IMG/VR virus record: IMGVR_UViG_3300045284_000065 | Coordinates: 1 to 64,000 of that record | Strand: one strand, 5' to 3' | DNA from: a virus | DNA: 64,000 nucleotides | Shown here: piece after piece, positions 271-29,400 of the stretch | Position numbering within the stretch: position 1 is the stretch's first letter | Layout: the number at the start of each line of letters is the position of its first letter | The notes under the pieces: model-generated | What the model was told of the DNA's origin: nothing | Databases searched by the model: none | Seen by the model: the letters and a program-made list of their open reading frames with translations, nothing else | Position numbers and translations under genes: made by a program

Positions 271-587
271 TAGATGGGGGCGGGCGCGTCGCCAGCCGTG
301 GCCCACAGGGGCGGCGAGGTGCTCACCATCGTCACCTCGCACTCGCAGGTGAGCAGGCCAGCCACGCGCCGCGCCTCCCACTCGGTGAACGGGCCAAGGA
401 TGGCCTGTGGTCGGTGGTCGCTCTCCACCGGACGACGCCACTCGTCAACGAACGCCGTGGCACTCCCGTCCCAGCACAGGATCACGTACGTGACGCGCGG
501 GGCCACGCGTGCGAGACGGTCGAGGCGTTCGATCGTCTCGGCGGCGTGCTCAAAGGGGTGCTGTTCCAAGGGGAAGTTGTCAGTCAT
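270..587 (-). CDS. Hypothetical phage protein
   Basis: MTDNFPLEQ... start; ATGA overlap with upstream ORF. Confidence 0.65.
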   Translation of the reverse strand: MTDNFPLEQHPFEHAAETIERLDRLARVAPRVTYVILCWDGSATAFVDEWRRPVESDHRPQAILGPFTEWEARRVAGLLTCECEVTMVSTSPPLWATAGDAPAPI

Positions 588-930
588 CGTGTCGTTCCAA
601 GCTGCTCGGTGGGTGGTAGTGGTTCCAAGGGTTCCAAGGGGCGTGGCTCCCACACTGCGACGTGAGCGTGGGCGATCTTGAAGGCTCGGCGGATGGCCTT
701 GATGAGTTCCAAGCGATCCACTTCCAAGGCATCCAGGGGTGCGTTCCACTCAGGCACTGGTGACTCGTTCCAAGACGGCGCGCACCTCGTCAAGCGTTAC
801 CACGTCACTCCACTCTTCATTGTTGACGCGGTGACTCCACAGCAGGGTGATCGCGATCGGGCAGACCAGTTCCAAGGGCTGCACGTCGGCCTCTTCGGCC
901 TGCTCGTACAGCGGCTCGGTCAGTTCCAAG
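563..930 (+). repeat. Cluster of 8 GTTCCAAG octamers
   Basis: Copies at 563, 594, 622, 631, 706, 767, 869 and 923, all in the same orientation. Confidence 0.9.
584..757 (-). CDS. Small hypothetical protein
   Basis: GTG start VPEWNAP..., overlapping or coupled to both neighbours. Confidence 0.5.
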   Translation of the reverse strand: MPEWNAPLDALEVDRLELIKAIRRAFKIAHAHVAVWEPRPLEPLEPLPPTEQLGTTR

Positions 931-1118
931 TGGTTGTCGGTGTCGATCAGCACGTCGAGCACGTCGTCCCAGCCAGCACCACGCCAATGTGGATTGACCA
1001 TGACGAAGTTCTGCAGTGCTGCGGCGCACTCGGTGGGCATGTTCTCGCGCACCCAACGCAGTTGGCCCGATGGGGATGATGCGTCCCACCCTGAGGAACG
1101 CTGTGTGTCACCGGTCAC
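750..1118 (-). CDS. Hypothetical protein
   Basis: AAGGAG RBS before GTG at 1118; acidic globular sequence. Confidence 0.6.
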   Translation of the reverse strand: MTGDTQRSSGWDASSPSGQLRWVRENMPTECAAALQNFVMVNPHWRGAGWDDVLDVLIDTDNHLELTEPLYEQAEEADVQPLELVCPIAITLLWSHRVNNEEWSDVVTLDEVRAVLERVTSA

Positions 1119-1275
1119 GGTCCATCTCCTTGCCGTCGAATCCGTCCTCGAAACCTGCCTTGAAGTCAGCGAACGTCCCGGCCTTGGCAGCGTCTGCGAA
1201 GTCCCAGCGCGGGTCATAGGTGTCGTCCTCGCGGCGAATCTGGCCGCAGGCGTAGCCAGCCGTGTAGTCGCTCAT
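1108..1275 (-). CDS. Small hypothetical protein (55 aa, MSDYTAGYACG...)
   Basis: Read by hand, below ORF-track cut-off; ATGA coupling with 1272-1541. Confidence 0.6.
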   Translation of the reverse strand: MSDYTAGYACGQIRREDDTYDPRWDFADAAKAGTFADFKAGFEDGFDGKEMDRDR

Positions 1276-1541
1276 GGCGTCACCACCGGAGTCTGCGTGC
1301 GGGTGCGGGCGAGCATCGCCGTGTAGGACTCACCACGGTTGCGGTGCATGTGCTGCTCGGCCGCTGCTTCCTCGGCTGCGTTGTCGGCCATGCACTCTGC
1401 GTACTCGTCCTCGTACTTCCACGGCTTCTCGACCATCAGGACGATGTTGCGAGCCGTTTCGTGGTGTTCCAGCATCCAGTAGGCGAGGCGCACCACCTCG
1501 TCGTGCTCGTTCCACCAGCGGTCTGGAAAGAAGTCAGTCAT
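1272..1541 (-). CDS. Hypothetical protein
   Basis: RBS AAGGAG, typical codon usage. Confidence 0.7.
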   Translation of the reverse strand: MTDFFPDRWWNEHDEVVRLAYWMLEHHETARNIVLMVEKPWKYEDEYAECMADNAAEEAAAEQHMHRNRGESYTAMLARTRTQTPVVTP

Positions 1542-1923
1542 GATCGAATATCTCCTTGGTCACGTTGATGCCAGTTCGGTAGATGGCAGTGATGGGGAGC
1601 ATTCCGATGCAGGAGAGCCAGAACACTCCGAAGCAGATCACGTAGGCCTTGAAGTCAGGCCAGGTCGCCATCGCAGCGAACAGGATGCGAAGGCTGATGA
1701 GGCATAGGGCGATAACGGATGACCACCACAGCCACGGGTGGGAGCCGCGCGCCCCGGCCACCCAGCGGCTGAACCGCCGCCAGGGGCTGGGACCACGGGG
1801 TGGTGCCGGTGGTGACGATGGGTAGATGGGCGGGGGCGGCGGTGCCGGGGTGCTGTACTGCACCACCGGCACCTCGGGCCGCGGCGTGGTCGTGAGGCTC
1901 TTGGCCTTGAAGGGCGTGGTCAT
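1534..1923 (-). CDS. Membrane protein, Pro-rich N-terminus plus 2 TM helices
   Basis: Two hydrophobic segments. Confidence 0.7.
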   Translation of the reverse strand: MTTPFKAKSLTTTPRPEVPVVQYSTPAPPPPPIYPSSPPAPPRGPSPWRRFSRWVAGARGSHPWLWWSSVIALCLISLRILFAAMATWPDFKAYVICFGVFWLSCIGMLPITAIYRTGINVTKEIFDHD

Positions 1924-2156
1924 GATGCATCCTCGCCAACGAGGCCAATCATGCCCTCAACCTCGTCGTCCTGTTGCTGACCTGTGTAGTCAGTGACGAC
2001 GTAGGAGTCGGAGTATTCGAACTCGTACTCGGTGAGCACGCCTTGGTTGTTGCGGGCGTAGTCGTTCGCCTCGTTGAAGCTGTCGAACATCGCACCCTCG
2101 TCGCCGTCGATGGTGACGGTCCACTTGTAGACGTTCATGATGCGCTGATCCACCAC
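1920..2156 (-). CDS. Hypothetical protein
   Basis: Operon coupling; acidic. Confidence 0.65.
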   Translation of the reverse strand: MVDQRIMNVYKWTVTIDGDEGAMFDSFNEANDYARNNQGVLTEYEFEYSDSYVVTDYTGQQQDDEVEGMIGLVGEDAS

Positions 2157-2905
2157 TCCTGGGCAGGCTCGCTCTCGCCCTCGTTGTAGCGCTCCACCTT
2201 GTACTCGGCCTGGTTGGCAGAGGCGAACACCCAGCCGACCATCATCTGGACCGCCTCGGCTGGGCTGGTGGCAGTGAACGTGTTGCGGATGACCACGTCG
2301 TACTCCTGCTCGTCATCCTCCCCTGAGGTGTCGAGTGTGTCATCGGACACGGTGTACTCGTCGCGGTCCTGGGTGTCGGTGTAGCTCTCACGGTCCTGGC
2401 CCTCGGTGCCTTCCAGCGGGACGCCATCGACCGTGGCGACTCCGTCGTCATCGATCATGAGCACGCTGCCCACTGGCGTCTCGCCCTTCGGCTGGTGGTC
2501 GCGGTGGGCGATGCCCCGGACGTAGTCCACGAACGCTCCACAAGTGGGGCAGGCGTCGAGCGAGGCGTCGAAGTAGTACGAGCAGTGGTCGCAGAACCAG
2601 CCGTCCTCGGGCAGCGGGCCGGTGATGGTCACCGTGCGGATGTCGCCTGCGTTGGGCAGTGCGACCACCTGGGTGCCTTCCTCGACGTTCATCGGGTTGG
2701 TGAGCCATTCGACGTACATGTCCCAGGCCTGCTGGCGATCGCTGGCAGCGAACGTGGCCGACGTGGTGAAGCTGTACTCGCGCTCGGGAGCGATCATCGC
2801 GTCCTGCGCTGCTCGCCACTCGTCAAAGCCGAGACGGGTGTCGCATGTCGCCACGGCACGCTGCCAGGTGGCGTATTCCTCGGTGACCATGTAGTACCCG
2901 CTCAT
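2135..2905 (-). CDS. Hypothetical protein with zinc ribbon
   Basis: WFCDHC...CPTCG; ATGA overlap at 2902-2905. Confidence 0.7.
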   Translation of the reverse strand: MSGYYMVTEEYATWQRAVATCDTRLGFDEWRAAQDAMIAPEREYSFTTSATFAASDRQQAWDMYVEWLTNPMNVEEGTQVVALPNAGDIRTVTITGPLPEDGWFCDHCSYYFDASLDACPTCGAFVDYVRGIAHRDHQPKGETPVGSVLMIDDDGVATVDGVPLEGTEGQDRESYTDTQDRDEYTVSDDTLDTSGEDDEQEYDVVIRNTFTATSPAEAVQMMVGWVFASANQAEYKVERYNEGESEPAQEWWISAS

Positions 2906-3237
2906 GACCAGGTCGCCTTGTGCCCGCCGAAGTCGACGTTCTTGTAGCACCCTGCCTGGTAGGCCACCTCGCCCACCTCGTCCATGTACACGTCGGTCTG
3001 CTCGCCCTTGACGAACACCTTGCTGCCCCGCACCATCTCACGGGTGACCGTGTAGGTGTCGTTGGCGGTGAGGCTGATCCGCACCCGGTAGCCGTGGCCG
3101 ACCGGCAGCAGCAGGTCGGGGTAGCGCTCGTCGTCCAACGACGGCACCATGATCGCCCGCATGCCGCTGATCGCCATCAGGTTGCCGACGCCGATCTGCT
3201 GCAGCGTCTGCTGCGGCACCATCTCTCGCTCGCTCAT
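2902..3237 (-). CDS. Hypothetical phage protein
   Basis: AAGGA RBS; extended -10-like TGCTAGCAT at 3286-3294. Confidence 0.75.
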   Translation of the reverse strand: MSEREMVPQQTLQQIGVGNLMAISGMRAIMVPSLDDERYPDLLLPVGHGYRVRISLTANDTYTVTREMVRGSKVFVKGEQTDVYMDEVGEVAYQAGCYKNVDFGGHKATWS

Positions 3238-3304
3238 TGTGGTTGGTCCTTCTCAGTAGTGGGCGTGTCGCCCGGTGTGTTACTCATGCTAGCACCCGTG
3301 GGCA

Positions 3305-3550
3305 CTAATGGGCACTGTCGTCGTCTGGAAAGTCGAGTGTGTCATCCGTCACCAGGCGGAACTGCGAGAGCAGCGAACCCAGCCACGCCTGCCCCTCGGT
3401 GAGTGGAGGCCAGGTGTCACCGCATAGGCAGATATGGGCATCACGGTGCCCAGCCACCCGTGAGCAGAGGTGGTGCCAGATCGTGGTCACCGGCTCGTCC
3501 TCGCTGCTGGGGATCACGGTCTGCCACTCGCAGTCACACTCGCTCATCAT
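3305..3550 (-). CDS. Small Cys/His-rich hypothetical protein
   Basis: CxC...C...H...HxCxC pattern; coupled start. Confidence 0.55.
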   Translation of the reverse strand: MMSECDCEWQTVIPSSEDEPVTTIWHHLCSRVAGHRDAHICLCGDTWPPLTEGQAWLGSLLSQFRLVTDDTLDFPDDDSAH

Positions 3551-3612
3551 CGCCGCACCACCGATACGAAGCAGACCACGATGAACGCCATGCATCCGAT
3601 GCCGAACCACAT
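3547..3612 (-). CDS. 21-aa hydrophobic micro-peptide (MWFGIGCMAFIVVCFVSVVRR)
   Basis: Fills the gap exactly, with TGATG and ATGA overlaps on either side. Confidence 0.45.
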   Translation of the reverse strand: MWFGIGCMAFIVVCFVSVVRR

Positions 3613-3761
3613 CACGCACGCTCCGCGTTGTACTCGGCACAGCGCTCGCGCGCCTCGTCCTCGAAAGCGAAGGCGTCGATGACCTCGCCGTCCAACAGAA
3701 TCAACCAGGGCACCTGGTAGCTCTCGTCGTACTTGACCACGTACTCAACTGCGCTGCTCAT
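3612..3761 (-). CDS. Small hypothetical protein (49 aa)
   Basis: MSSAVEYVVKYDESYQVPW..., read by hand; good codon usage. Confidence 0.6.
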   Translation of the reverse strand: MSSAVEYVVKYDESYQVPWLILLDGEVIDAFAFEDEARERCAEYNAERA

Positions 3762-3764
3762 GGC

Positions 3765-4430
3765 TCACCACCCCCACCAGGGAGTGTTGCGCTCTTGGTC
3801 GCGCACACGGCGGCACTCGGACTGGCACCACGAACCCTGCCACTGGCTGCGCTGGCCGTAGCGACGGTGCAGCGTGGTCATCTCGGGCAGGTTGTCCGGG
3901 CTGATGTGCGGCCAAATGTCGTGCCAGACCACATGCCAGCGGGTTCCCTTGGGCCACTTGATCGTCATCGCGTCTCCCTGGTGGATGGTGACCCGGTCGC
4001 CGTACTCCTGCACGAACCAGGCACCGATGGTGTCGATGATGCGCTGGTCGCTCTCGACCACGTCAACGTGAGTGAGCACGTCCAGCATCGCGCCGACCAC
4101 GCAGCCCATGCCCAGCCCATTGACCAGTCCGGTGGCCTCGGGGAGGTTGGTGCCGTACAGGTCGGAGGCTGCGACGGCCAGGAGGTGATCGTGGCGCTCT
4201 GCGGTGGTGTCACTCATCCACAGTGTGTCATCCACCACCAGCTTGGCGTACTCACCCGGAGCGCAGCCACGGCCGTGCATGGCGTATTCCAGGCTCGCCA
4301 TGAAGGTGCCGAACGACTCGTTCGGCCCTCCCACCGTGAAGCGTGCGACGCGCACGCCGTTGGTGTCGAACTCCGGGCCTCGGTAGGCCAGGCGCTCCAT
4401 CCGGTTCATCGTTGGTGCGGTGGTGGTCAT
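3765..4430 (-). CDS. Class I SAM-dependent transferase (spermidine synthase-like)
   Basis: VNGLGMG motif I, VDVVE acidic motif II, IHQGDA, WHVVWHDIW. Confidence 0.75.
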   Translation of the reverse strand: MTTTAPTMNRMERLAYRGPEFDTNGVRVARFTVGGPNESFGTFMASLEYAMHGRGCAPGEYAKLVVDDTLWMSDTTAERHDHLLAVAASDLYGTNLPEATGLVNGLGMGCVVGAMLDVLTHVDVVESDQRIIDTIGAWFVQEYGDRVTIHQGDAMTIKWPKGTRWHVVWHDIWPHISPDNLPEMTTLHRRYGQRSQWQGSWCQSECRRVRDQERNTPWWGW

Positions 4431-4621
4431 GACGCCCCTCCTGAGGTGTCGGGTGTGTCATTCGACACAACATTGTCGGGGAGTGGGAACGTCCAGCCCT
4501 TGGCAGCGTGTGCATCGCTGCACACTCGGCAATCCGGGTTGCGGGGCTGTTTGAGGATGATGCCCGTGACGGGCAGGCCACACAGGGTGGCCTGCCCGTC
4601 GTTGGAGAAGTGGCTCATCAC
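4427..4621 (-). CDS. Small zinc-binding hypothetical protein
   Basis: H...LCG...CRVC. Confidence 0.6.
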   Translation of the reverse strand: MMSHFSNDGQATLCGLPVTGIILKQPRNPDCRVCSDAHAAKGWTFPLPDNVVSNDTPDTSGGAS

Positions 4622-5424
4622 GCCGCCTTGCCCTTGCCCTTCTTGGCAGCGTCGATGGAGGCCTGGAAGGCGTCCATCAGGTTGTCGATGGCAGCGGGTG
4701 CCTGGACGGTCGCCTTGGGAGCGCCACCGGCCTTGGAGTCCACGTACGCCTGCACCACCGGAGCGGTGTCGTCGGTGACGATCGGAGCATCGATGCCGAT
4801 CGCTTCGATCAGGCTGGTCGCCATGCCGACCTCGGTCTTGGTGAACCGGAAGTCGTCATCCAGCGGGATGGGCTTGCGGATGGCATCGGCGGTGAGCACC
4901 ATGAGCAGGTCACCCTCGTAGGTGAGGATGGCGTACCGGGCCGGTCCACGCATCGCCAGCTGCAGGAGAGCGCCCACTTTGAGCGACTTCATCCCGGCGA
5001 ACAGGAGCGCGAGCGCCTGGGTGGCGGGGCGGCTGGGCTTGCCCTTCTCGACCTTGGGGCGCACCTGGTACAGCTTCTCGGTGAGGTACTGACCGAAGTC
5101 CTTCACCGGCACGAAGCTGATGATTTCCGCCACGCCCTTGGGGGACGTGCAGGCGGCAATCTCGTCGTCGTCCAGTGCGACCCAGGAGCCGTTGGTGGCC
5201 TGCGCCATGCGGACCACGTCGGTCTGATGGACGACCTGCTCGGTGTCCTTGCGGATCGGCGCACGGCCGATCGGGACGTTGGGGTCGCCGTTGTAGAACT
5301 CCTTGCGGACGACTCGCGTCTCTTCGGTGGCCGTGTACACGCCCAGCTGGATGTTGAGCATCCCAGCGGAGACGGTGATGCTGGTGGTCGCCCGGGTGGG
5401 CATTCCAGCGAGGGAGGTGAACAT
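4618..5424 (-). CDS. ku: Ku-like DNA end-binding protein
   Basis: N-terminal RATTSITVSAGMLNIQLGVYTATEE and C-terminal NLMDAFQASI match prokaryotic Ku; RBS GAAGGA. Confidence 0.8.
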   Translation of the reverse strand: MFTSLAGMPTRATTSITVSAGMLNIQLGVYTATEETRVVRKEFYNGDPNVPIGRAPIRKDTEQVVHQTDVVRMAQATNGSWVALDDDEIAACTSPKGVAEIISFVPVKDFGQYLTEKLYQVRPKVEKGKPSRPATQALALLFAGMKSLKVGALLQLAMRGPARYAILTYEGDLLMVLTADAIRKPIPLDDDFRFTKTEVGMATSLIEAIGIDAPIVTDDTAPVVQAYVDSKAGGAPKATVQAPAAIDNLMDAFQASIDAAKKGKGKAA

Positions 5425-5463
5425 TGGTTGGTCCTTCTTTCGGGTTGTCGGGGACATGCACAT

Positions 5464-5721
5464 TCAATCAGGTGTGGGCACGATTGGGCACTCTTCCCTG
5501 AGGTGTCCAGTGTGATACTCGTCACACACTCGGCACCGGTAGGCGACGAGCTTGCCGATGCGGTAGCGCATCTTGACGGTGCCAGCGTTGTAGGCATCGC
5601 AGAGAGCCTGCGCCGCCTCCTGGGTCAGGGGGCGCTTGGCGCGGCCACGGGTGGTGTAGTGGTCGCGTGGGGCGAACACCGGAGCCACCCGCCCTTCGCG
5701 GGTGGCTCCGATCATGGTCAC
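5464..5721 (-). CDS. Hypothetical protein with YxCxxCxxYHxG motif
   Basis: AYRCRVCDEYHTGH. Confidence 0.65.
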   Translation of the reverse strand: MTMIGATREGRVAPVFAPRDHYTTRGRAKRPLTQEAAQALCDAYNAGTVKMRYRIGKLVAYRCRVCDEYHTGHLREECPIVPTPD

Positions 5722-7040
5722 GGCGTGCCGCCCAGCGCCTGGGCCAACGGATCGTTGGGGTCGGGCATCGGTGCGAACTGCGCCGCCGCCGCCTCGGCGT
5801 TGTAGCGGGCCTGCTTCTCGTCTTCCAGCAGCGATGAGCGGATGGTCTGAGCGTTGAGAATCTCATCCGCCGTGATGCGGTGGCGCTCATCGAACATGCC
5901 CAGGAAGATTTCGAGCGCCATCTCCACGCCGTGGATGCCGATGTTGCGCTGGATGCGCTGCAGCAGGGCCGTGGACACCGGAATGTTGATCTTCCGGTTC
6001 TGATAGGCGGTACGGAACGCCTCGGCCAGGCGGTGCAGGTTCTCGTTCTTGATGAGCGTGTGCTCCACCACGGGGTCGTAGTCCCACAAGATGTGGTCGA
6101 AGCGCTGGTGAAGTGACTTGTTCATCTTCGCCATATCCTCGTATCCCTCGTTGTACGTGGTGATGACCCAGCAGTCTTCGTGCAGCCGCACGAACTCGGC
6201 CATGACCACGCCGCCCTTGACGATCGCCTTGCCACGGTTCGTGAACTCATGGCGGTGGTCGAGCACCGGGTTGAGGCTGATGGCGTAGCGGGGCGGGATG
6301 GCGTTGATCTCGTCCACGTAGAGGATGCCCCCGGTCTGCGCCCACATCTCGACAGTGCCGGGGAGGTGAACGATGCGATCGCGGCCCGTGCGCTCATCGA
6401 CCATCGACACCGGCTGACCGAAGAAGTCGTAGTCGGTGACACCGGCCGAACCGGACAGGGTGTAGATGGGCATCGGCTTGGGCAGTCCCCGTTCCTCGGA
6501 CAGCTTCTCGGCCAGCTTCTGGACGATGAGCGTCTTGCCCGACTGCGTCGGACCTTTGAGAGCGAACGAGACGGCGTAGCCCTCGTTCTCGCGGCGGTTC
6601 TCGTCACTGGCGTAGGCGAGCAGCGTCTCAATGTCCGACTTGCCGTTCTTCATGGTGCGGCTGATGTACCGGGCGACCTTGCTCCCACGGCCGCACAGCG
6701 GGCGCAGGTGGTCGAGGCGCTTGTCCATCGGGTCGGTGATCGGATCGGTCAGCGATGACTTCGCCACCTGCTGCATCAGCTGCTGGGCGGTCGATGCGTC
6801 GTCACCTGAGGTGTCGAGTGTGTCATCCGACACAGCCTCTTCGACAGGCTCGGGCAGGTCAGCCAGGACACGGGGCAGCACGTAGGCCACGCTGCCATCG
6901 AACTCGACAGTGATCTTGCGGCGGCGCGGATCGGAATCCGGGAACACCTTGCTGGTGATGACGGTGACGGTCTCCCCCATGAGGGGACCCGACACAACCC
7001 GGTACTTGAAACCGGGGAGGAGTGCTTCGGCTGCGGCCAT
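5718..7040 (-). CDS. MoxR/CobS/NorQ-like AAA+ ATPase
   Basis: Walker A GPTQSGKT, Walker B LYVDEIN, sensor TTYN, LHQRF. Confidence 0.85.
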   Translation of the reverse strand: MAAAEALLPGFKYRVVSGPLMGETVTVITSKVFPDSDPRRRKITVEFDGSVAYVLPRVLADLPEPVEEAVSDDTLDTSGDDASTAQQLMQQVAKSSLTDPITDPMDKRLDHLRPLCGRGSKVARYISRTMKNGKSDIETLLAYASDENRRENEGYAVSFALKGPTQSGKTLIVQKLAEKLSEERGLPKPMPIYTLSGSAGVTDYDFFGQPVSMVDERTGRDRIVHLPGTVEMWAQTGGILYVDEINAIPPRYAISLNPVLDHRHEFTNRGKAIVKGGVVMAEFVRLHEDCWVITTYNEGYEDMAKMNKSLHQRFDHILWDYDPVVEHTLIKNENLHRLAEAFRTAYQNRKINIPVSTALLQRIQRNIGIHGVEMALEIFLGMFDERHRITADEILNAQTIRSSLLEDEKQARYNAEAAAAQFAPMPDPNDPLAQALGGTP

Positions 7041-7144
7041 GACGTGCTTCCTTTCGGGAGGCGGTTGGGTTCGGTGAGAGAGACATTACACCCGTGGAGG
7101 GCGGGATCAACACCTGTGGGCAGAAACGTGCAGGAGCAGGGAGG

Positions 7145-7173
7145 TTGCATGCTGGTGCCCACGGGAGTACGAT
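7145..7173 (+). promoter_or_regulatory. Sigma70-type promoter, probably giving a leaderless transcript
   Basis: TTGCAT-N17-TACGAT ending 7 nt before GTG 7181; no RBS. Confidence 0.6.
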
Positions 7174-7180
7174 CCTTCCC

Positions 7181-9250
7181 GTGACCACACAACCCGCACC
7201 CAAGAAGACGCGCAAGCGCCTTCCACCAACCACCGAGATGGGCCGTCAGCTGATGAAGATGGGCCGCGAGAAGATGGCCGAAGAGGCCGCTCGCACCGCT
7301 GAGAGGATGCTCAACGAGCGCACCCAGCGCGAGGAAGCAGAGCTTGCTCTCCACAACCGCAGCCGCAACGTGTCCACCGCCGCCGCCGTGTCGCGAGGAC
7401 TGCTCGGCAGCATCGTTGGCTCACTCGCATCGGAGGACATAACCCCGTACATCGATGTGCAGCCGGTCGAACTGTTCAGCAGCCTGGAAGCGTGGACCGA
7501 CTTCCATCAGATCCACATTCGCTACCACCAGGACCCTGATCCCCGGATCATGGCGGCGGTGCTGCGTGGCCTGATGTACCACGAAGGTGGTCACATTCGG
7601 TGGACGATCCCGTTCGCTGAACTGCGAGAGATGGCGGGCGTATCTGCTCAGGGGACGGGCGAAGAGATGCGCCGCCTGCAGCGGGCCTGGAACGCTCTAG
7701 AGGATCAGCGCATGGAGACGGCAGTCGTCAGCGACTCACCGAACAAGGCTGGGTTCTTCGTCCCGATGGTGATGATGGAACTGCTCAACACGGTCGACAA
7801 GGCGACGATGAACTACCCGCTGCTGGTGTGGCGTCGGTACCTGCCGAAGCACATTCGCGACGCCTGCCGCGCCGCCTTCGTGGCGTTCCAGGGTGGCGAC
7901 GAGCACCTGACCCTGCAGATCGAACAGTGCGTGGACGACTACGTGAAGGCGACCACGGCCTGGCAGATGTGGGCAGCCGTGTGCTGGTTCGCTGAACTGA
8001 CCAACCTGCTGCAGATGACCCTGCCCCAGGCAGCCGAGACTCACTCCAAGCAGAAGTCAACGCGCCAGGGCGCTGATGGCGAGACGCAGCAGAGTGGTCC
8101 CGCCCCGGCCGAGAAGATGGAGATTCCCATCGACCCGACCCAGGACGCCAGCCCAGCCGGTGGTGGCGACGAGGACGAGCAGCCCGCCGAAGAGGCCGGT
8201 GGCGAGGCCGGTGGCGAGCAGGAAGGCGAAGGCGAGAGCGCCGCAGCGGGCGGCGAGGGTGGCGAGGAAGGCGACGGCGAGGGTGGTGACGAGGGTGCTG
8301 GCGACAGCCCCGACAGCGACGCCACCAGCGGCGAGAGCACGCAGGGAGCAGAGGGCAGCGGTGCCGGTGCTCGCAGCGAGGATGAGGCCAACCATGACCC
8401 GCTCTCCCAGGAGATGCTGAACGAGGCGATGGCCCAGGCAGAGGATGACCGGTACAACAGCCGCTCGCTGGATGCCGACGTGGACGCCTTCAACGACGCC
8501 CTGGATCGCCGCGGCTCCAAGCTGGGTGCGTACACGCTGCACCCCGAAGAGGACGTGGATCGCCTCATCGCCGCCGACGCGCTGGCTGATGACCTGGTCG
8601 GCTCGTTCAACCAGGCGACGATGGATCGCATCCCCTCCTGGGTCGAAGGACAGCGCTCGGGCCGACTGAACGTGGGCCGGTACATGACCCGCCAGCCGGG
8701 TGACATGGAGTACTTCACGCAGTGGATGGACGACGACGTGCCCGGCTACAACCTGGCCGTGTCGGTCCTGCTCGACTACAGCGGTTCCATGAGCCGCAGC
8801 GCCCAGGACTTGGCCCAGGCGGGCTACGCCGTCAAGACGGCCTGCCAGCGCCTCGACATTCCCTGCACCGTGGTGCTGTGGGATGACGACGCCAAGGTGC
8901 TGTGGGATGGCGAGGAAGAGGCCGACATGCTGCCCCGCATCGTCTGCACCGGCAACACCGACCCGACCTGGGCGCTCGCTGACCTGGACAACCAGCGGTT
9001 CAACAAGGTGCGCCACCTGGTGCTCATCATGACCGATGGCGTGTGGTCGGGCTATGGCGACCGGACCCTCGCCCCGTACTGCATCGACGGGCGCATGATG
9101 ATGGGCATCGGCTACGCCCTGGACGACGAGAAGAAGGCGCAGGGCCGTACGGCCAAGCTGATCGGCTACGGCTGCCCGGACGCCTTCCCGATCACCAACC
9201 TGCAGGAACTGCCCTGGCTCCTGGAGGAGTACCTCATCCGCATGGCCTGA
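7181..9250 (+). CDS. CobT-like VWA protein with HEXXH domain and acidic linker
   Basis: YHEGGH, NALEDQRME, long G/E/D linker, MIDAS LLDYSGSM, IMTDG. Confidence 0.85.
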   Translation: MTTQPAPKKTRKRLPPTTEMGRQLMKMGREKMAEEAARTAERMLNERTQREEAELALHNRSRNVSTAAAVSRGLLGSIVGSLASEDITPYIDVQPVELFSSLEAWTDFHQIHIRYHQDPDPRIMAAVLRGLMYHEGGHIRWTIPFAELREMAGVSAQGTGEEMRRLQRAWNALEDQRMETAVVSDSPNKAGFFVPMVMMELLNTVDKATMNYPLLVWRRYLPKHIRDACRAAFVAFQGGDEHLTLQIEQCVDDYVKATTAWQMWAAVCWFAELTNLLQMTLPQAAETHSKQKSTRQGADGETQQSGPAPAEKMEIPIDPTQDASPAGGGDEDEQPAEEAGGEAGGEQEGEGESAAAGGEGGEEGDGEGGDEGAGDSPDSDATSGESTQGAEGSGAGARSEDEANHDPLSQEMLNEAMAQAEDDRYNSRSLDADVDAFNDALDRRGSKLGAYTLHPEEDVDRLIAADALADDLVGSFNQATMDRIPSWVEGQRSGRLNVGRYMTRQPGDMEYFTQWMDDDVPGYNLAVSVLLDYSGSMSRSAQDLAQAGYAVKTACQRLDIPCTVVLWDDDAKVLWDGEEEADMLPRIVCTGNTDPTWALADLDNQRFNKVRHLVLIMTDGVWSGYGDRTLAPYCIDGRMMMGIGYALDDEKKAQGRTAKLIGYGCPDAFPITNLQELPWLLEEYLIRMA

Positions 9251-9274
9251 GTGGCCCACTGGATATGGCGATAT

Positions 9275-9317
9275 GCCCCCCGACCTTCCCCCCGCGAGTG
9301 GAGAAGGTCGGGGGGCA
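9275..9317 (+). terminator. Strong hairpin after VWA gene
   Basis: GCCCCCCGACCTTC...GAAGGTCGGGGGGC 14-bp stem; no U-tract. Confidence 0.5.
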
Positions 9318-9338
9318 TCGTCGCGTACCGTGTGAGCC

Positions 9339-9617
9339 GTGAGCGAGGACCGGATGGAGCAGCACCGCCGCGTGCTGCTGTGGCTCGCAGAGCGTGCCTC
9401 TGACGAACCCCTTGTGCCGTGCGGCACATGCCGTCATGACATTGACGACCACCTGGGTGGCCTGAGCATGTGCATGTTCCCGGCCACCATTGGCGCACCG
9501 GCCCGCCTATGCCGGTGCGAGGTGTTCGATCTATCGACGGAGCAGGATGACGACGAGGATGATGACGAGCACCAGCAGCAGGAACCCGCCGCCGATGTAG
9601 ATCCCGTCAGCGAGTAG
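9339..9617 (+). CDS. Small Cys/His zinc-binding protein
   Basis: CGTCRH...H...C...CRC; 3' end overlaps an antisense ORF. Confidence 0.5.
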   Translation: MSEDRMEQHRRVLLWLAERASDEPLVPCGTCRHDIDDHLGGLSMCMFPATIGAPARLCRCEVFDLSTEQDDDEDDDEHQQQEPAADVDPVSE

Positions 9618-9629
9618 CGCGGCGAGCAT
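9531..9629 (-). CDS. 32-aa single-TM membrane peptide
   Basis: MLAALLADGIYIGGGFLLLVLVIILVVILLRR; TGATG coupling. Confidence 0.65.
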   Translation of the reverse strand: MLAALLADGIYIGGGFLLLVLVIILVVILLRR

Positions 9630-9835
9630 CAATCCCCCGTGGTGAGAGCGAGCCACCCCAGGGACACGCAGGCGAGGCCAGCGACCACCAGGAGCCAATG
9701 GAACTCCCAGGTGGTGCTCGCGCGTGCCACCACCAGGCGCACGCATTCGATCACGAACAGGATGAAGGCGACCAAGAACATGACCTCGCCGAAACTGTTG
9801 GCAGTCATGATTTCGGCCACTAGGGCTGTCTTCAC
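9629..9835 (-). CDS. Small 2-TM membrane protein
   Basis: AAGGAG RBS; two hydrophobic helices. Confidence 0.7.
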   Translation of the reverse strand: MKTALVAEIMTANSFGEVMFLVAFILFVIECVRLVVARASTTWEFHWLLVVAGLACVSLGWLALTTGD

Positions 9836-9853
9836 GGGATATCTCCTTATGGG

Positions 9854-10768: not shown

Positions 10769-10780
10769 TGTTCCAAGCTC

Positions 10781-16156: not shown

Positions 16157-16157
16157 G

Positions 16158-17542: not shown

Positions 17543-17545
17543 CGC

Positions 17546-18554: not shown

Positions 18555-18557
18555 GGC

Positions 18558-18809: not shown

Positions 18810-18820
18810 TGGATATCTCC

Positions 18821-19234: not shown

Positions 19235-19248
19235 CCATCATCTCCGTC

Positions 19249-19458: not shown

Positions 19459-19506
19459 GGAGACTCCTTTCGATCAGTTGGTCGAACGAACGGTATCACT
19501 CAGGCC

Positions 19507-19770
19507 CTAAGCGCCCTTGGCCTTCCCCTCCACATCGGTCACCTGCCGCTGCACCCGCCAGTTGAAGATGTTCTCGATGGGGAGCACGCCGACCATCACC
19601 ATGCCGACAGCGAGTTGACCGAGGCGTTCCTCGGGGTTGACGAGGGCGTTGCCGATGACCCAGCATCCGAGGCCGAACACGACGAATCGACGGACGAACG
19701 TGAAGACGATCTCAACAACACCGGCTGTGGTCAGCCGTTCAACAGGCTCGTCCACGTCTTCTGCCCGCAC
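19507..19770 (-). CDS. Holin-like 2-TM protein
   Basis: Two TM segments, directly downstream of endolysin. Confidence 0.55.
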   Translation of the reverse strand: MRAEDVDEPVERLTTAGVVEIVFTFVRRFVVFGLGCWVIGNALVNPEERLGQLAVGMVMVGVLPIENIFNWRVQRQVTDVEGKAKGA

Positions 19771-21467
19771 TGGCCGTCAGCAGTCAGCCCCTTAGCAGTC
19801 TGGAACTTCTTGAGCGCGCTCTCGGTACCACTACCGAACACCCCATCGAAGTTGGCCCGGTTGGAGGGGTCCATCTGGCCGTTGGCCGAGAGCATGCGCT
19901 GCATGCGCTGCACGTCCATGCCTGTGTTGCCCTTGACGAGGTTGGGGATGCCGTTGCCCGCCTCCATGAACCAGTCCCAGCAGTCGCGGTCGCACACGCC
20001 GTCCTGCTGGGCACCCTTGGTGGCGAGGAAGCGGTTGAGGGCGCTCTCGGTACCCGATCCGAAGACGCCGTCGAAGTTCCCCATGTTGGCCGGGTCCATC
20101 TGGCCCGACAGAGCGAGGAAGTGCTGCATCCGCTTGACCGGCACGCCCTGCGCGCCCTTCTTCAGCACGGGCATCTTGTTCATCAGGTCAGTGGCCCAGT
20201 TGGTGGTGGGTGGCGGTGTCGTGATCGGTGGCGGTGTCGTGACGGGAGGTGGAGTCGTGGTCGGGGGCGCTGGGAGCACCCACTTCTGCGGCGGCGGTGA
20301 CCCGGCCTTGATCCATGCGCTGACGCTGTGCGGGAACTCGGTGAACTGGAAGTGCCACACCTCCCCACCCCAGGTGGCCTGTTCGAGGCCGAACCGCTCA
20401 CAGTTGAGCGCCGCCCACTTCAGGTCACCGACCGCATCGACCGCAGCGGACCAGCCCTGGACGATGTTCTCATGGAAGGAGCGCAGCGGTGGTGCGGCGT
20501 GGGCCGCACCCTTCTTCAGCTGGTAGCGCTTGCCCTGCCAGATGCAGCAGCCCCCCGAGGTCACGGTGTAGTGACGGTCGAGGAACACCGCCTGCTGCTG
20601 GGCCGTGGAGCGACCCGCACCACCGATGCCGAGCTTGCCCTCGCTGGCGATCATCAGCGCCTGCCAGCGATTCTTGAACTCGGGGTGGAGCATCTTGACT
20701 GACGACCGAGCGAAGACCTCTTCGATGGTCCGCTGCGTTGGCGGGCTGTTGTATCCGTCCGGGTAGGTCGTCGCCACTGTCGTCTCCTTGTTCCAAAGGG
20801 TGAACCAGTTGCCGAGCACGGCGGGGTCACCGCGGTAGGCGTTCATGTCGAGTGCCTTGTTGCCCCAGGTGACCTGGCAGCTGAACTGCAGGAGCACCGG
20901 AGTGAGTCCTCCGTACGCCTTCCAGTCAGCGCTGGCGTCGCCGCCGCGAGCTTGGTACACCTGGCTGGCCGAGCCGGTGGGCCAGGGCTTGGCTCCGTAC
21001 TCCGCAGAGACGAGGTCGAAGCCCGACCCGGCCATGTTCGGCTTGCCCTGCTCTGCCCAATACCAGTCGGGTGCGTAGATCAGCTTCACCTTGTGCCCGA
21101 GGTTGCGGATCTCCGTCGTCACGGCGAGCACGTCGGCCCATGTCGGCACCTGGGGCTGGCCCGGTGGGTGGCAGTTGTCGTCGTTGTCCCGCTCCCAGTC
21201 GATCATGCAGTTGACCGACGAGTCAGCGCCGACACCCTCATGGAAGGCGACGGCCTGTGTCTTGGCCGGGTGAGAGTTGACGGGGTAGACGTAGTGATAC
21301 GCCGCTGTCGGGATGTCGTGGTCCCGATACCACTTGATGGCGGTCAGCGCCGTGGTGTCGATCATCTGACCGATGGAGGCCCGTGTGATACCGAACCCGA
21401 TGCCGTGAGGATCAGGTGGTACTAGGCCCTTCTGATACTGGGAGACATCGGGGCCGAAGACGGTCAT
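19731..21467 (-). CDS. Endolysin: GH25 muramidase + M15-type zinc peptidase + 2 peptidoglycan-binding domains
   Basis: GPDVSQYQ, IDWE, LDMN; GRS...SFH...AVD...EVWH; P/T linker; two (LxKG..G..V..MQ..L...FDGVFGSGTESAL) repeats. Confidence 0.85.
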   Translation of the reverse strand: MTVFGPDVSQYQKGLVPPDPHGIGFGITRASIGQMIDTTALTAIKWYRDHDIPTAAYHYVYPVNSHPAKTQAVAFHEGVGADSSVNCMIDWERDNDDNCHPPGQPQVPTWADVLAVTTEIRNLGHKVKLIYAPDWYWAEQGKPNMAGSGFDLVSAEYGAKPWPTGSASQVYQARGGDASADWKAYGGLTPVLLQFSCQVTWGNKALDMNAYRGDPAVLGNWFTLWNKETTVATTYPDGYNSPPTQRTIEEVFARSSVKMLHPEFKNRWQALMIASEGKLGIGGAGRSTAQQQAVFLDRHYTVTSGGCCIWQGKRYQLKKGAAHAAPPLRSFHENIVQGWSAAVDAVGDLKWAALNCERFGLEQATWGGEVWHFQFTEFPHSVSAWIKAGSPPPQKWVLPAPPTTTPPPVTTPPPITTPPPTTNWATDLMNKMPVLKKGAQGVPVKRMQHFLALSGQMDPANMGNFDGVFGSGTESALNRFLATKGAQQDGVCDRDCWDWFMEAGNGIPNLVKGNTGMDVQRMQRMLSANGQMDPSNRANFDGVFGSGTESALKKFQTAKGLTADGQCGQKTWTSLLNG

Positions 21468-22962: not shown

Positions 22963-23690
22963 CGCGTCTGCGGCAGCGACTGGTCACTGCCCAGGTTCAG
23001 CTGCTGACCCGGCATGATCAGGTTCGGATCGCCGCCGATCACGCCCTGGTTGGCGTCGTAGATCTGATGCCAGTTCTGCCCACTGCCCGTCGTCCGTTCA
23101 GCGATGTCCCACAGTGTGTCACCGGCTTGAACGGTGTACGGGGCGAACTGAGCGGGCTGTGTTGCCATGGGAGCACCTCCGGGTGGTAGCGATGAGGGAG
23201 CGTTCGCGGATGACTTGGGTGCTCCAGCCGAAACGGTGTACGGAGCGGAGGTGTTCGTCGCCCCGCCTGTCCCCCGCACTCCGCCAGCCGTGAGAGGTGG
23301 GGTGGCGTGGCCTGGGGTGGCCCTGGTGCCGTTGCCAAGGCCGTTGGGCGTACCGGCACCGAACATGCCGTTCGAGCCGCCCTTGCCACCACCGAGGCCG
23401 CTCGCACTGCCAGCAGCAGCGCCACCCCACCCAGGTATCCCGGCCTGGCCGACAGAACGAGGGCTGGAGGCCATAGCACCACCCGTACCGGACAGGCCCC
23501 CGATGTACGCCCCCCGCATGTCGGGGGAGGTCGGCCGACCCGACGCCATGAACGACGCCAGGTCCTCTGGCGAGTTCATGTCACCAGGAGGTGGGCCGGG
23601 AGGGCGAGGGTTCCCTGCGCCCTTCGGGAATGCTCCGCGACTGACCTGCCGATTGGGATGGTAGGCGGTGTTCAATCCTCGGGCCATCAC
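22959..23690 (-). CDS. Disordered Gly-rich protein with C-terminal LysM domain
   Basis: YTVQAGDTLWDIAER...IYDAN...PNLIMPGQQLNL. Confidence 0.85.
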   Translation of the reverse strand: MMARGLNTAYHPNRQVSRGAFPKGAGNPRPPGPPPGDMNSPEDLASFMASGRPTSPDMRGAYIGGLSGTGGAMASSPRSVGQAGIPGWGGAAAGSASGLGGGKGGSNGMFGAGTPNGLGNGTRATPGHATPPLTAGGVRGTGGATNTSAPYTVSAGAPKSSANAPSSLPPGGAPMATQPAQFAPYTVQAGDTLWDIAERTTGSGQNWHQIYDANQGVIGGDPNLIMPGQQLNLGSDQSLPQTR

Positions 23691-24025
23691 TCCTCTTTCC
23701 TACGTCGTGGGAGTCGCCCACCAACACTACGCGCCCAGGCATCACCCGAATCTGTGCGATCGGCTGAGTGGGCAGGCTTGACGATGCTGGGGTTCTCCGC
23801 AGCCAGGCGATGTCCTTCGTTCCATAGCGCCGTACCGATACCCCGACGAGGTTCCAAGGACTGGATGTAGTGGACGCCCTTGTGACTCCAGGACATGTGG
23901 CCGACCTCGCTGCCGCCGCGGGTGGCTGTCACCTTGTGCTGATCGAATGAGATACCGCTCTCTGAGGGTGGGTAGTGCTTGTACTCGAACTGCACATCAC
24001 TCAGGCTCTCATGAGCGGCCATCAC
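23687..24025 (-). CDS. GNAT-family acetyltransferase-like protein
   Basis: Motif A RRGIGTALW; HS..RTDSGDAWA. Confidence 0.65.
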   Translation of the reverse strand: MMAAHESLSDVQFEYKHYPPSESGISFDQHKVTATRGGSEVGHMSWSHKGVHYIQSLEPRRGIGTALWNEGHRLAAENPSIVKPAHSADRTDSGDAWARSVGGRLPRRRKEE

Positions 24026-25251: not shown

Positions 25252-26453
25252 CAGGTGAGGTCACCGGCCAGGAGCCACCGATCGGTGCCGACCTTGGTCA
25301 GTGACGCCGCCGAGCCGACAGCCCGAAGGATGGCCGAAGGTGAGGCGATGATCGTCGTCGTGCCTGGGGTAACAGCGGCGACGGTGATCTTCCCCGCCCC
25401 CGACTGGAAGAAGTCGGTGCGGTAGCCGACAGGGACGGGCAGGGTGGCGTTGGTCGGCACCGAGATGGCGATGGCTGTTGCTGCCGTGTACTCGGTGAGC
25501 TTGCTCTCATCAGCGAGAGCGATGGTGTAGCTCGTCGCCGCCGAGGGCGCTGCGATGACCTGACGCAGTGGTGAGTACAGCGTGTCAGCGGTGGCCTGAT
25601 TGAGACCGCCGAGCGTGGTGAGCATCGCTGCCACCGTCGTGTCATCGAGCACGGTGCGCGCTGCGGCGGTGATCGTGGCTGTCTCGGGCACGCCGGTCGA
25701 AGCGGTTACCCGACCTATGAACTGGTCCTGGGTGAGGTTGGCCATCTTGGCCAACGTGATGGTGCCTGCGTCCACCGTCGCCACACCAGAGGCCACGGTG
25801 AAGTCACCGAAGTCAGCGTTGGCGAGCATCGCTGCGGTGATGGTGCCCGCCCCTGGTGTCGTCGTCACGGTGGCCCAAGTGCCGTCGTCCTTCAGGTACT
25901 TGCCGGTGGCCGTGGTCGGTGGCGGAACGAGTCCCTTCAGGGTGGCTGTGAACAGGTCGAGGGTGGCGGTGAGTTGGGTGGGCGTACGTGATGCCCACGC
26001 CGAGCCGACCGACTGGATCACGTTGTTGGTGGTGGCCGTCAGGCTGGCGATGGTGGTCAGGTCGGTGTCAAGAGGCTGATACCCCGATACCACCGACACG
26101 TTGTCGACGTTGCCGAGGCCCACGTCGGCCTTGACGAGAGCGAGCAGCGTCTTCACCGAAGCGGCGGTGAGGTCGGTCGGTGCAGCGGTGGCTCCAGTGG
26201 CGTTGCCCTTCATGGTGAGGGTCGGCATCGTCGCCAACTTGACGTTGGTGATGGAGCCATCGGCCACCGTCGCAGTGCCCGGAGTGACCCACTGCGTGTT
26301 GTAGTTGGTGGCGTCGATCTTGGAGAGCACCTGGTTGGCGGTGCCACCGACCGGCACGCCCTGTCCTGGTGGCCCGGTCGACCCGGTCATCACCACGTCG
26401 GTGAACGTGGCGACGCTGCCAACGATGGAGGTGCAGCGCTTGATGCTAGGCAT
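25251..26453 (-). CDS. Tail fibre protein
   Basis: GGTANQVLSK, KADVGLGNVDN, C-terminal LTKVGTDRWLLAGDL. Confidence 0.8.
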   Translation of the reverse strand: MPSIKRCTSIVGSVATFTDVVMTGSTGPPGQGVPVGGTANQVLSKIDATNYNTQWVTPGTATVADGSITNVKLATMPTLTMKGNATGATAAPTDLTAASVKTLLALVKADVGLGNVDNVSVVSGYQPLDTDLTTIASLTATTNNVIQSVGSAWASRTPTQLTATLDLFTATLKGLVPPPTTATGKYLKDDGTWATVTTTPGAGTITAAMLANADFGDFTVASGVATVDAGTITLAKMANLTQDQFIGRVTASTGVPETATITAAARTVLDDTTVAAMLTTLGGLNQATADTLYSPLRQVIAAPSAATSYTIALADESKLTEYTAATAIAISVPTNATLPVPVGYRTDFFQSGAGKITVAAVTPGTTTIIASPSAILRAVGSAASLTKVGTDRWLLAGDLT

Positions 26454-26456
26454 GCG

Positions 26457-29400
26457 TCACCCCCAGTGAGCGATCTCTAGCCGCCCGGTGTTGGCGTCCT
26501 CGGAGAGGTTGGCGAGGGTCATGTAGTTGGTGGTCCCATCGGCAGTGCTCTTGTAGATGGCCAAGCCCTTGTACGTGTCGCCGCTGACGAGTTGATCCGC
26601 CCATCCCGCAGGCAGGGTGATCAACACGGCGGCACCGTTCCAAGGGAGGTTGGCGTCGATGTCCACCCCGGCGAACAATGCTGGAGCACCAGCGGGCACC
26701 GAGGTGTACTGGTGCTTCCATAGCGTGATATCCCGATCAACACCGTCGCCACCGTCCATGCGCTTCAACCAGATCTTCCCCGACACGATCGTGCGCCGCC
26801 CGCCGTAGTACAGGGTGGAGTTGGGCTTGGTGCCGTAGAACCAGCAGCCGGTGGCGTTGTAGGCCGTGTTGGAGTAGTAGCCCTGGATCGGACGGCTGTT
26901 GCCGATGGCATTCCATGTGCCGTTGGCTCGGTAGTGGTTGGTGGACGAGGCTGTGATGTAGGTGGGCGATGCGATGAGGGTGTACGCCGTGGCGTTGGTG
27001 TACGTGCTGTTGAGCGCCGCATCACGGGCATAGACCCGGCAGTAGATCGTGCCCGAGGAGTAGGTGCCGACGAGGATGTCGGTCTTGGCTCCGCTCCCCG
27101 CCGTCCAGTTCACGACGGTGGCCCAGGTGGCACCATCGGTGGAGCGATCGACCCTGTAGGCCGCTGTGCCGGTGCCGAGTGTGAAGTCGATGGTCATGCG
27201 CCCGTAGGAGACATCGGGTGCGAACCGCTGGATCGTCGGCGCTGGGGGTGGGGTGGTGTCGGGGGGAGCAGCGGTCGTGGCAGTCGCCGTGCGCTGCGGC
27301 GAGTACAGCAGGCCGGTGTCCCTCGTTCTGACCCCGAAGGTGTACGGGGTCGAAGCAGCGAGGCCGGTGAAGGTGTACGTCAGCGCAGTGGTGAACCCCT
27401 TGGACGTGGCACCGAGGAAGACCTCGTAGTCCTTCTGGTCCGAGGAGGTGGAGTCAGGCCAGGTACCAACGGCCGAGTCGTAGTCGACGGCGCTCATCGT
27501 GAGAGAGGCTGGCTGCACCGGGGCAGCGTTGAGGCTGGTGGTCGAGTCGCTGACAGTGGTGCCGAAGAGGCCAGACGTTCCCTTGGACCTGATGCCGAAG
27601 GTGACCGGCGTGTTCTCGGTGACCGCCGCCGCTGTGTATGTCACCCCGGCCTGGGTCGTCTTCAGGACACCGTTGACATACACCTCGTACTGGTAGCCGC
27701 TGCCACCAGTAGCCGCCGTCCATGCCACATGGGCATCCGTTGACGACGACGACGCTGCGTTCACCCCGGTGACATCGGCGGGCTTGGTCACGATGCTCAC
27801 AATGGCTGAGTACGGTCCACTACCCGCTGGTGTGCCACTAGCCGATCCGTTGACGCCCTTGATGCGGTACCAGTAGGTCGTGTTGGCAGTGAGGCCTGAG
27901 TCGGTGTACGTGGTGAGGCCAACAGTGGTGGTCAGAATGGTCGGCCAGGTCGTCCCGTTGGTCGAGCGCTCCAAGGAGATACCGGTCAGCGCTTCTGCTG
28001 CTGTCCACGCAGGCCAGGTGAGCACCACGGCGTAGCCGGTGGAAGCGTTGGCTGCGGTCAGCACCTTCGCCGTCGGTGGCTGCAAGAGGATCTGGGTAGT
28101 CTCGAACCAGAGGTCACCAACAGCGACGCCGTTCGCCACCGTGGGCTGCTGGTCACCGATCCAGATATCAGCAGAGACGGCACCGTCAGTGGCGTGTACC
28201 TCCAGGATCTCGGGGTGGCTGTGCCCAAGGGCTGCGTAGGCAATGTCACCCTCGGTCGGGGTGAGATACTGGGGGTGCGGGTCTGGCTGGGCAACGTGGA
28301 GGGCGACCGCCCCGAGCTTCTCGTAGAGGAGATCGTGGTTGTGGACGATGGGGGCGTAGAGATCATCCGCTTCGTCCTCGGTGAGGTAGAGGCCTGCTGC
28401 TTCATCTGCGTCGAGGTACTGGGAGTGAGGATCGTTGTAGACCTGCCCCGCCGCTGCCAGGGTGACCGGCACGGTGTATCCGGGCGGTGCCGTCGTGCCA
28501 TAGGTGATGCTGATCAGCGTGGGGTCTGTCTCGGTGTCGAGCACCGGCCACTTCTTGTTGAGGGCAGGGTCAACGTTGGTCAGGTTGATGTAGCTGTTCG
28601 GCAGGATGCTGTGCCGTGGGTCCACCGTCAGGGTGAGCACACCGTTCGGGTTCCACGACCAGCCGCTCACCGCCCAAGAGTCCTGGATCTGGTGGTTGAT
28701 GACCTGCTGACGGATCTCGGCCTGGTGGTTGTGGACGAGGGGTGCGTACTTCACCACCTCACCGCTGTCGTCGTACTCCTCCAGGAAGTACTGCGGGTGC
28801 GGATCAGCAGCGGCGAGGTGATCCAGCATCACGTTCTTGACGTACGTCTCGGACGAGAAGGGGATGTACTGGAAGACCATGTCGGCCAACGTCAGGTCAG
28901 TGCCCGCATCGTGGGCCGGGTTCGTCGGGTTGAAGAGGGGGTCGATGGCGATGATCCAGTCGCCGTTCGCAAGCTCTGCCTGCTTGTCGGTGCCCACGTC
29001 GTAACGACCTGACGCATCGCTGTCGATGAAGTCGAGGACACCGCCCGAACTGCACACCCAGTACATGCCGTGGCGATAGACGGTGGGGCCAAGCTCCCAG
29101 GAGGGGGCGGGCTTGGCGTGCGTGGTCCGGTATGCCTCGGCGTCGTACGTACCGACGTAGAGGAGGTCACCGAGCAGTGCCTCCAACCCCGCCTGAGTGG
29201 CGAAGAAGGTGGCGTGGTAGGTGTCGAGCATGTCGGCGTTGATGCCGCTGCTATCGACGGTATGACCCTGGTTGCCCTGGTGCCAGACCTTGCTCGTCTT
29301 GTACTTCAGGTTGGTGGCGTCAAGCGACATCAGGGCCGTGCCACCAGCACCGGCAAGCCCAGCGACGTTGTCGTGAGCACCACCCTGGTACCAGTAGAAG

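Follow-up and report, generated by a model that had tools for sequence, protein, structure and literature searches.

The DNA considered here is IMG/VR record IMGVR_UViG_3300045284_000065 (G000 below), a viral sequence of 91,554 bp, linear and 79% complete by its rating. The window is the whole stretch that was analysed, the first 64 kb of this record. The element in question is an octamer, GTTCCAAG, for which an exact-word count gives 21 copies on the + strand, spanning 563-26644. The - strand holds two copies, at 44741 and 45001, and the remaining 27.5 kb of the record beyond the window contain none on either strand. An earlier note, made by reading the sequence alone, had listed the same copies and none on the + strand past 27 kb, and all of its coordinates are exact. 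The copies come in groups, with eight in 563-930, five in 10095-11092, four in 16984-18253 and single ones at 13197, 14218, 23851 and 26637; between the first two groups, 931-10094 is free of copies. Spacings in the dense first cluster are 31, 28, 9, 75, 61, 102 and 54 bp, so that eight copies fit within 370 bp. The sites are listed below together with the element that bounds them; R denotes a close relative (G001 + L133) with ~80% nucleotide identity to G000, and G002 and G308 are further related genomes.

1-270, no strand: GC-rich (~85%) non-coding hairpin element bounding the octamer domain, recognised by its folding pattern and kept in R
563-930, + strand: dense cluster of eight copies (563, 594, 622, 631, 706, 767, 869, 923), across the - strand genes 750-1052 and 270-587 and the uncalled gap between them
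10095-11092, + strand: five copies (10095, 10395, 10770, 10899, 11085), within gene 9854-10768 or in the divergent region that separates it from the + strand membrane-protein gene
13197-13204, + strand: copy in the TGT/DpdA-like gene (12529-13902); R, G002 (75953) and G308 (3919) have one at a similar offset in their homologues
14218-14225, + strand: copy in gene 13902-14951, kept in R
16984-17077, + strand: two copies (16984, 17070) in gene 16613-17542, both kept in R
17867-17874, + strand: copy in gene 17546-18124 (exact word; alignment with R)
18246-18253, + strand: copy 2 nt 5' of a potential ATG, in the low-scoring open reading frame (ORF) 18124-18345 (exact word; alignment with R)
23851-23858, + strand: copy in the uncalled stretch 23676-24024, kept in R
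26637-26644, + strand: last copy on the right, towards the 3' end of the 1866-aa fibre-like gene, in a region that does not align with R
10005-20797, + strand: possible weak sites one base off, from a variant scan: GTTCCAAC (10005, 17888), CTTCCAAG (17959, 721) and GTTCCAAA (20790)

The genes of this domain include the giant fibre-like gene, which follows a SpoVS-like gene, together with minor-tail-like, lysin, TGT/DpdA-like and + strand membrane-protein genes, a CobS/CobT-like pair, Ku and a methyltransferase. Replication genes follow at 33-50 kb and contractile-tail structural genes at 52-91 kb.

The octamer is strongly enriched. Dinucleotide shuffles predict 0.96 copies with both strands summed and four at most, in agreement with the rough expectation of under one per strand in the earlier note. 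The strand-specific 8-mer count that the note had suggested for the whole record ranks GTTCCAAG first among all 8-mers, and it is also the most discriminating word between the left 27 kb and the remainder (21 vs 0); its density in this arm is 780 per Mb. The word is strict, with zero to two occurrences of each one-mismatch variant. TTCCAA on the + strand of the left arm lies nearly always within a complete GTTCCAAG, and the strict core is GTTCCAA. Flanking positions carry no information beyond a weak CC before CTTGGAAC, the form that the sense strand reads over most of the domain, and no partner motif recurs at a constant distance. The reverse copies at 44741 and 45001 look like chance occurrences, both being missing from R. 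The most over-represented 10-mers of the window also include AT-rich palindromic words (ATATCCCGAT, TATCCCGATA and 10-12-mers of the ATATCCCGATAT type).

Nearly all genes of the record lie on the - strand. Given such a uniform gene strand, strand bias is by itself uninformative, while the restriction to the left arm is informative. The earlier note had named a codon or dipeptide effect as the finding that would count against a selected signal, and nulls of this kind fail to account for the copies in genes. Shuffling codons within left-arm genes leaves 0.29 copies vs 12 observed, and resampling of synonymous codons leaves 0.56 +/- 0.72 (at most 4) vs 13 observed, which excludes a by-product of codon or dipeptide usage. 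Leu-Glu is written TTG-GAA in 8 of 33 cases within the domain and in 1 of 74 elsewhere, with 1.3% predicted from codon usage. As the note had stated, the word occurs in all three reading frames of genes (L-E, L-G-T, W-N) and also in non-coding DNA: eight of the 21 copies lie in uncalled DNA, which in the codon model makes up ~11% of the arm. Its example of a PLEPLEP peptide holds in part, as the word is indeed present at 622-638 but the stretch is uncalled and maybe not translated. Copies are found just 5' of start codons in three cases (594, 10770, 18246), and one conserved copy fills the spacer between ribosome-binding site (RBS) and ATG of gene 9854-10768. Three copies sit in the divergent control region.

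Two small genes at these sites deserve description. The - strand protein 750-1052 belongs to a small five-helix family with seven members in public data and an invariant ELTEPLYE flanked by H(L/I) and (Q/E/A); the octamer spells three Leu-Glu pairs of the G000 member. Its predicted fold (five helices, mean pLDDT 79.5) has no match in the PDB. In the divergent region, ORF 10781-11059 on the - strand holds copy 10899 and adjoins a perfect 9-bp hairpin at 10911-10937. This ORF has no family match and is probably a real gene, given its conservation in G002 (70%), G308 and a further relative, G313.

Comparison with relatives reveals purifying selection on the word. R has 18 copies on the dominant strand and none on the other, and every one maps onto a copy of G000, including all eight of the cluster. 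Identical in R are 18 of the 20 alignable G000 sites, vs 35% of background 8-mers. Sites 10095, 10770 and 11085 form conserved islands in R amid poor flanks (local 8-mer conservation 0.04-0.27), and site 10899 reads GTTCCAAC there. G002 (115.7 kb; capsid 79% identical) has 12 copies and one on the other strand, and all 12 fall within 64.3-97.6 kb, ten of them deep inside genes. Four form a cluster at the syntenic place, inside genes unrelated to those of G000, and two lie in the homologue of the giant fibre-like gene. G002 also has an exact GTTCCAAG at the position equivalent to the G000 variant site 17959, and eight extra copies of GTTCCAA followed by a base other than G, every one inside the domain. 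The 27 kb of G002 that are missing from G000 contain no copy. G308 (109.8 kb; capsid 78%) has eight copies and one on the other strand, with seven of the eight in the syntenic block, and G313 (117.4 kb; capsid 59%) has eight and none on the other strand, all in the block; in these two genomes the copies are dispersed and there is no dense cluster. The word is thus restricted to one syntenic third of the genome. Some positions are shared (four genomes have the one in the TGT-like gene), and others have turned over. The 9-11 kb adjoining the cluster hold no exact copy in G000, R and G002. Since 18 of 20 sites are identical in R and the relatives keep same-strand copies despite turnover, selection would maintain the set of copies; on this comparison, the word is under purifying selection in one lineage as a set and not at fixed places.

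Outside this lineage, neither relatives with ~50% capsid identity (41-47% GC) nor the Streptomyces phages with the closest DNA polymerase are enriched in the octamer. The capsid protein retrieves 537 relatives, of which a part was sampled. Megablast against cultured phages returned no relatives by DNA. In IMG/VR, a double-word pattern matched nothing but unrelated low-GC tandem repeats; in bacterial genomes, a triple-word pattern likewise matched tandem repeats only. We did not find GTTCCAAG as a word in the literature.

A further observation concerns orientation. In the four genomes G000, G002, G308 and G313 (~110-117 kb), ~90-95% of genes lie on one strand, and the few + strand transcription units within the domain contain six copies. 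All six keep the + orientation and none is flipped, with ~0.2 sense-strand copies expected by chance in such + genes.

G313, 108583 and 108616: GTTCCAAG on the + strand, inside the + strand CobT-like gene
G313, 109609 and 109656: GTTCCAAG on the + strand, between + strand genes
G308, 1701: GTTCCAAG on the + strand, inside a + gene homologous to the G000 membrane-protein gene
G000, 11085 (also in R): GTTCCAAG on the + strand, at the start of the + strand membrane-protein gene

The six unflipped copies show that polarity follows the DNA strand, independently of transcription. Such a pattern indicates a signal that is read on DNA, not on RNA and not relative to transcription, and it argues against stoperator-like roadblocks, RNA motifs and promoters. 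In G313, the two copies in the CobT-like gene lie within a duplicated acidic GSKDSD peptide. The G000 counterpart of this gene (7181-9250, + strand) forms a divergent pair with an AAA_5 (CobS/MoxR-like) ATPase gene (5718-7040, - strand).

Taken together, the distribution, conservation and orientation of the copies lead us to infer that GTTCCAAG is a cis-acting, strand-specific signal read on double-stranded DNA, probably by a protein that this phage lineage encodes. It is not explained by codon usage and is neither promoter nor RNA motif, and a host Chi or KOPS (FtsK-orienting polar sequence) word is not supported. The core idea of the earlier note, a selected, polar and frame-independent DNA signal, is supported by the nulls, by conservation in R and by the use of three frames.

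The dense cluster lies beside the hairpin element at 1-270. Within this element, positions 31-75 form a perfect 21-bp stem capped by a GCA loop, and three hairpins are of the GGGCGC-GCA-GCGCCC type. A counterpart is found at L133 11300-11700, and the GC content is 85-92% across both. GCA-loop palindromes are a feature of Streptomyces telomeres, of which the element is reminiscent. The hairpin element may be linked with the octamer. The earlier note had correctly placed the highest density beside the GC-rich window end, but this end is an assembly break and not a demonstrated genome end. The sequence of R runs >3.3 kb past the element, its contig a further 14.5 kb, and the genes there lie on the same strand. 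In the run from which the record probably derives, a 3.5-kb contig abuts positions 1-49, and contigs of run X1 meet inside the hairpin element. This run evidence comes from Logan assembled contigs of three soil runs; in two of them, X2 and X3, contig cover is lower over 560-1030, which is not usable as evidence. G002 (98% complete) is collinear with G000 but permuted, and G313 is a circular assembly whose ends overlap by 97 bp, rated 100% complete; among G000, G002, G308 and G313, the assemblies are circular permutations of one another. The DNA beyond position 1, the permuted G002 and the circular G313 place the cluster at the downstream end of a gene block, facing a large intergenic boundary. 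The polarity from a DNA end that the note had proposed fares less well on this evidence.

Beyond the boundary, ~18 kb of small genes precede the terminase gene; in G002, TerL is at 44200-45822 and the octamer cluster at 64266-64539. The 650-bp intergenic boundary beside the G002 cluster contains two tandem perfect DnaA boxes (TTATCCACA, TTGTCCACA, 12 bp apart) at 63653-63673 (L139 3653-3673), which do not occur in G000 or R. Rfam and tRNA scans of the window gave no matches.

Several mechanisms could employ a signal of this kind. The octamer may be a polar protein-DNA barrier or motor guide that marks the ~30-kb domain, acting as a one-sided Tus/Ter-like fork trap or guiding a DNA motor, and ending at the cluster and hairpin element. 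A strict asymmetric site that is co-oriented over ~30 kb independently of transcription direction is what such a system would use, and the copies are densest at a major intergenic boundary, which in G002 contains the DnaA boxes. We nevertheless consider this unlikely: there is no mirror set of sites across the boundary as in a KOPS-like orientation switch, no FtsK/SpoIIIE (PF01580) or ParB domain scores above cut-off in the phages, the GC-skew profile of G002 has no inflection, the cluster is missing in G308 and G313, and the DnaA boxes are confined to G002 among G000, R and G002. To our knowledge, no phage-encoded polar DNA system marking a chromosomal domain has been described. Rather improbable is a regulatory role, in which a phage regulator would bind the word and block or tune transcription of the gene block. 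The stoperators of cluster A mycobacteriophages (L5 gp71 sites) are also asymmetric, highly conserved and dispersed over tens of kilobases, and an operator function would suit the share of copies in non-coding DNA (8 of 21), the three in the divergent control region, the three just 5' of start codons and the presence of MerR-like and C2H2 zinc-finger genes, whose domains are confirmed. Stoperators, however, follow the direction of transcription, are mostly intergenic and belong to temperate phages. The octamer ignores transcription (6 to 0 in + units), and its sites are mostly deep in genes, as the ten of 12 in G002 illustrate. The degenerate variants usual in operator families are lacking. 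For tyrosine integrase (PF00589) there is no match in G000 or G002, and we identified no repressor and no other sign of lysogeny. The start-associated sequences of cluster K mycobacteriophages are no closer a parallel, with just three of 21 octamer copies abutting start codons.

Other rivals are less likely still. Packaging-initiation sites, proposed in the earlier note, would make the cluster a pac-like site for the small terminase, with the dispersed copies secondary. P1 and P22-type pac sites are short repeats spanning small genes, and the cluster resembles them with 4-8 short repeats in 270-370 bp across small genes; circular or permuted assemblies are moreover compatible with headful packaging. 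This is still a poor candidate, because ~18 kb separate the cluster of G002 from its large terminase gene, G308 and G313 have only dispersed copies without a cluster, the conserved dispersed copies (13 over 26 kb in G000) would have no role, and the small helical cluster protein lacks a fold match. Iterons, another proposal of the note, share with the cluster several short direct repeats within a few hundred bp that overlap small genes, but they are regular tandem repeats of ~17-22 bp beside an initiator; here, 8-bp units are spaced irregularly, by 9-102 bp in the cluster and over 27 kb in all, ~46 kb from the replication-initiator-like gene (46623-47675). Very improbable, in our view, is a Chi-like decoy or protection from a host helicase-nuclease. 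Chi, KOPS and SRS (SpoIIIE recognition sequences) are likewise strict oriented octamers read on DNA, in chromosomes by a moving enzyme, and the phage carries Ku and RecA (UvsX-like) genes, as the note had said. Were the hairpin element a physical end, CTTGGAAC on the 3'-ending strand would have the active Chi orientation. No fixed end is apparent, though, given the assembly break and the circular G313, and the copy-free 9-11 kb beside the cluster in G000, R and G002 also speak against protection of an end. Chi, KOPS and SRS are frequent and skewed on the host chromosome, whereas the octamer lies on one side of one boundary and stays at background in the Actinomycetota sampled. GTTCCAAG never exceeds its reversed-word control in 306 Actinomycetota genomes (5 + 301), a result that holds only for the genomes sampled; the 301 were drawn evenly from the phylum, and as eleven are unpublished (G127, G008, G181, G233, G055, G246, G025, G155, G089, G275, G095), the statement that none of the sampled genomes is enriched rests partly on these. 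The highest density among these genomes is ~55 per Mb, to compare with 780 per Mb for the phage arm. Streptomyces is the host of the closest cultured phages (32% DNA-polymerase identity). The host Chi/KOPS proposal of the note therefore finds no support in the genomes sampled. We give least credit to an RNA-level or promoter signal, either CUUGGAAC in mRNA or a -35 element of the GGAAC type. CTTGGAAC does include GGAAC, and the three copies abutting start codons would fit, but an extracytoplasmic function (ECF)-type promoter requires a -10 partner 16-18 nt downstream, which is absent as is any partner at a fixed distance, and a search for Sigma70_r4 (sigma region-4) gave no match. In the RNA of + strand genes the copies would appear as GUUCCAAG, and the conserved copy filling the RBS-ATG spacer is incompatible with a promoter for gene 9854-10768. 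The orientation test largely refutes this explanation. Evasion of type III restriction by one-orientation sites, as in T7, was also considered and rejected; it could give strand bias, but not 20-fold enrichment or conserved positions. An origin of the word in a tRNA T-loop was discounted, as T-loop position 57 is a purine.

The best-fitting explanation, which was not among the proposals of the earlier note, is programmed strand-specific nicking. We favour it tentatively as the most likely single mechanism, by analogy with phages that carry nick-associated motifs. A phage nickase would cut one strand at each copy, in the mature or the replicating genome, and leave localized single-strand interruptions of the kind known from T5, tf/LUZ24-like and phiKMV-like phages. 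Nicks would then be concentrated in the dense cluster next to the GC-rich hairpin element, and this spot would serve in replication, recombination or packaging. In phage tf, the nick-associated motif is a strict 9-mer, TACTRTGMC, with 14 copies that are all on the top strand and with sites common to relatives (PMC3517423). In Rembedalsseter (WACTRTGAC) and 60 related phages the motif is limited to one strand, with ~9 net copies vs 0.7 expected; it crowds into one region of the genome, occurs within genes as well as outside them, and persists despite little nucleotide similarity (PMC11780129). The octamer has the same signature, and it is this match that makes us rate programmed nicking highest. 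Like the nick motifs of tf, Rembedalsseter, phiKMV-like phages and T5, it is a strict asymmetric word, far above chance, on one strand whatever the gene direction, uneven along the genome, present in and outside genes and kept across diverged relatives. It differs in the word itself and in its lineage, a ~115 kb myovirus, probably of an actinobacterium, as well as in its limitation to a ~30% domain and in the cluster of eight copies in 370 bp, which has no counterpart.

Some observations weigh against nicking. The likeness to nick motifs is only statistical, and the phage is known here from assembled contigs alone. Tf-type phages show neither so dense a group as eight copies in 370 bp nor so narrow a restriction as ~30% of the genome, and since the cluster is missing from G308 and G313, it is not essential to the system. 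HNH and HNH_3 domains gave no match above cut-off in the phages, and the sole hint of a nuclease is a sub-threshold Hjc-like match in a 97-aa protein. This protein (34399-34692, - strand) is encoded beside the RecA/UvsX-like gene and is kept in all octamer-bearing genomes; it is the G002 homologue that shows the sub-threshold match to Hjc (Holliday-junction resolvase), and the protein is possibly a nuclease. Phylogenetic profiling and domain searches found no reader protein for GTTCCAAG. Profiling leaves 20 candidates, mostly without a family match, one of them with the Hjc-like hit; the motif-poor relatives that it drew on (41-47% GC) are too distant. Among the proteins that could read the word are the MerR-like (39580-40023), C2H2 (40016-40453) and Hjc-like ones, the product of ORF 10781-11059 and those of genes 270-587 and 750-1052. 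We know of no nickase for the nick motifs of the tf or T5 type, nor for the phages with the octamer.

The domain also encodes potential DNA-modifying functions. The TGT/DpdA-like protein (queuine tRNA-ribosyltransferase PHROG; 12529-13902, - strand) and the methyltransferase (3765-4430, - strand) raise the possibility of 7-deazaguanine or methyl modifications in the phage DNA.

It is ~50 years since strand-specific nick motifs became known in T5 and a few Pseudomonas phages, and what they do is still obscure. If programmed nicking holds for the octamer, large soil myoviruses, probably infecting actinobacteria, would be a further lineage with the nick-motif signature. The features of the octamer are sharper than in the known cases, with its limit to one domain and its dense cluster beside a hairpin element. 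The phenomenon would thereby become broader, and the enzyme and the function could be sought in a new setting. If the octamer is not a nick site, it would represent an undescribed polar DNA signal that the phage has placed in its own genes, accepting rare codons as the price.

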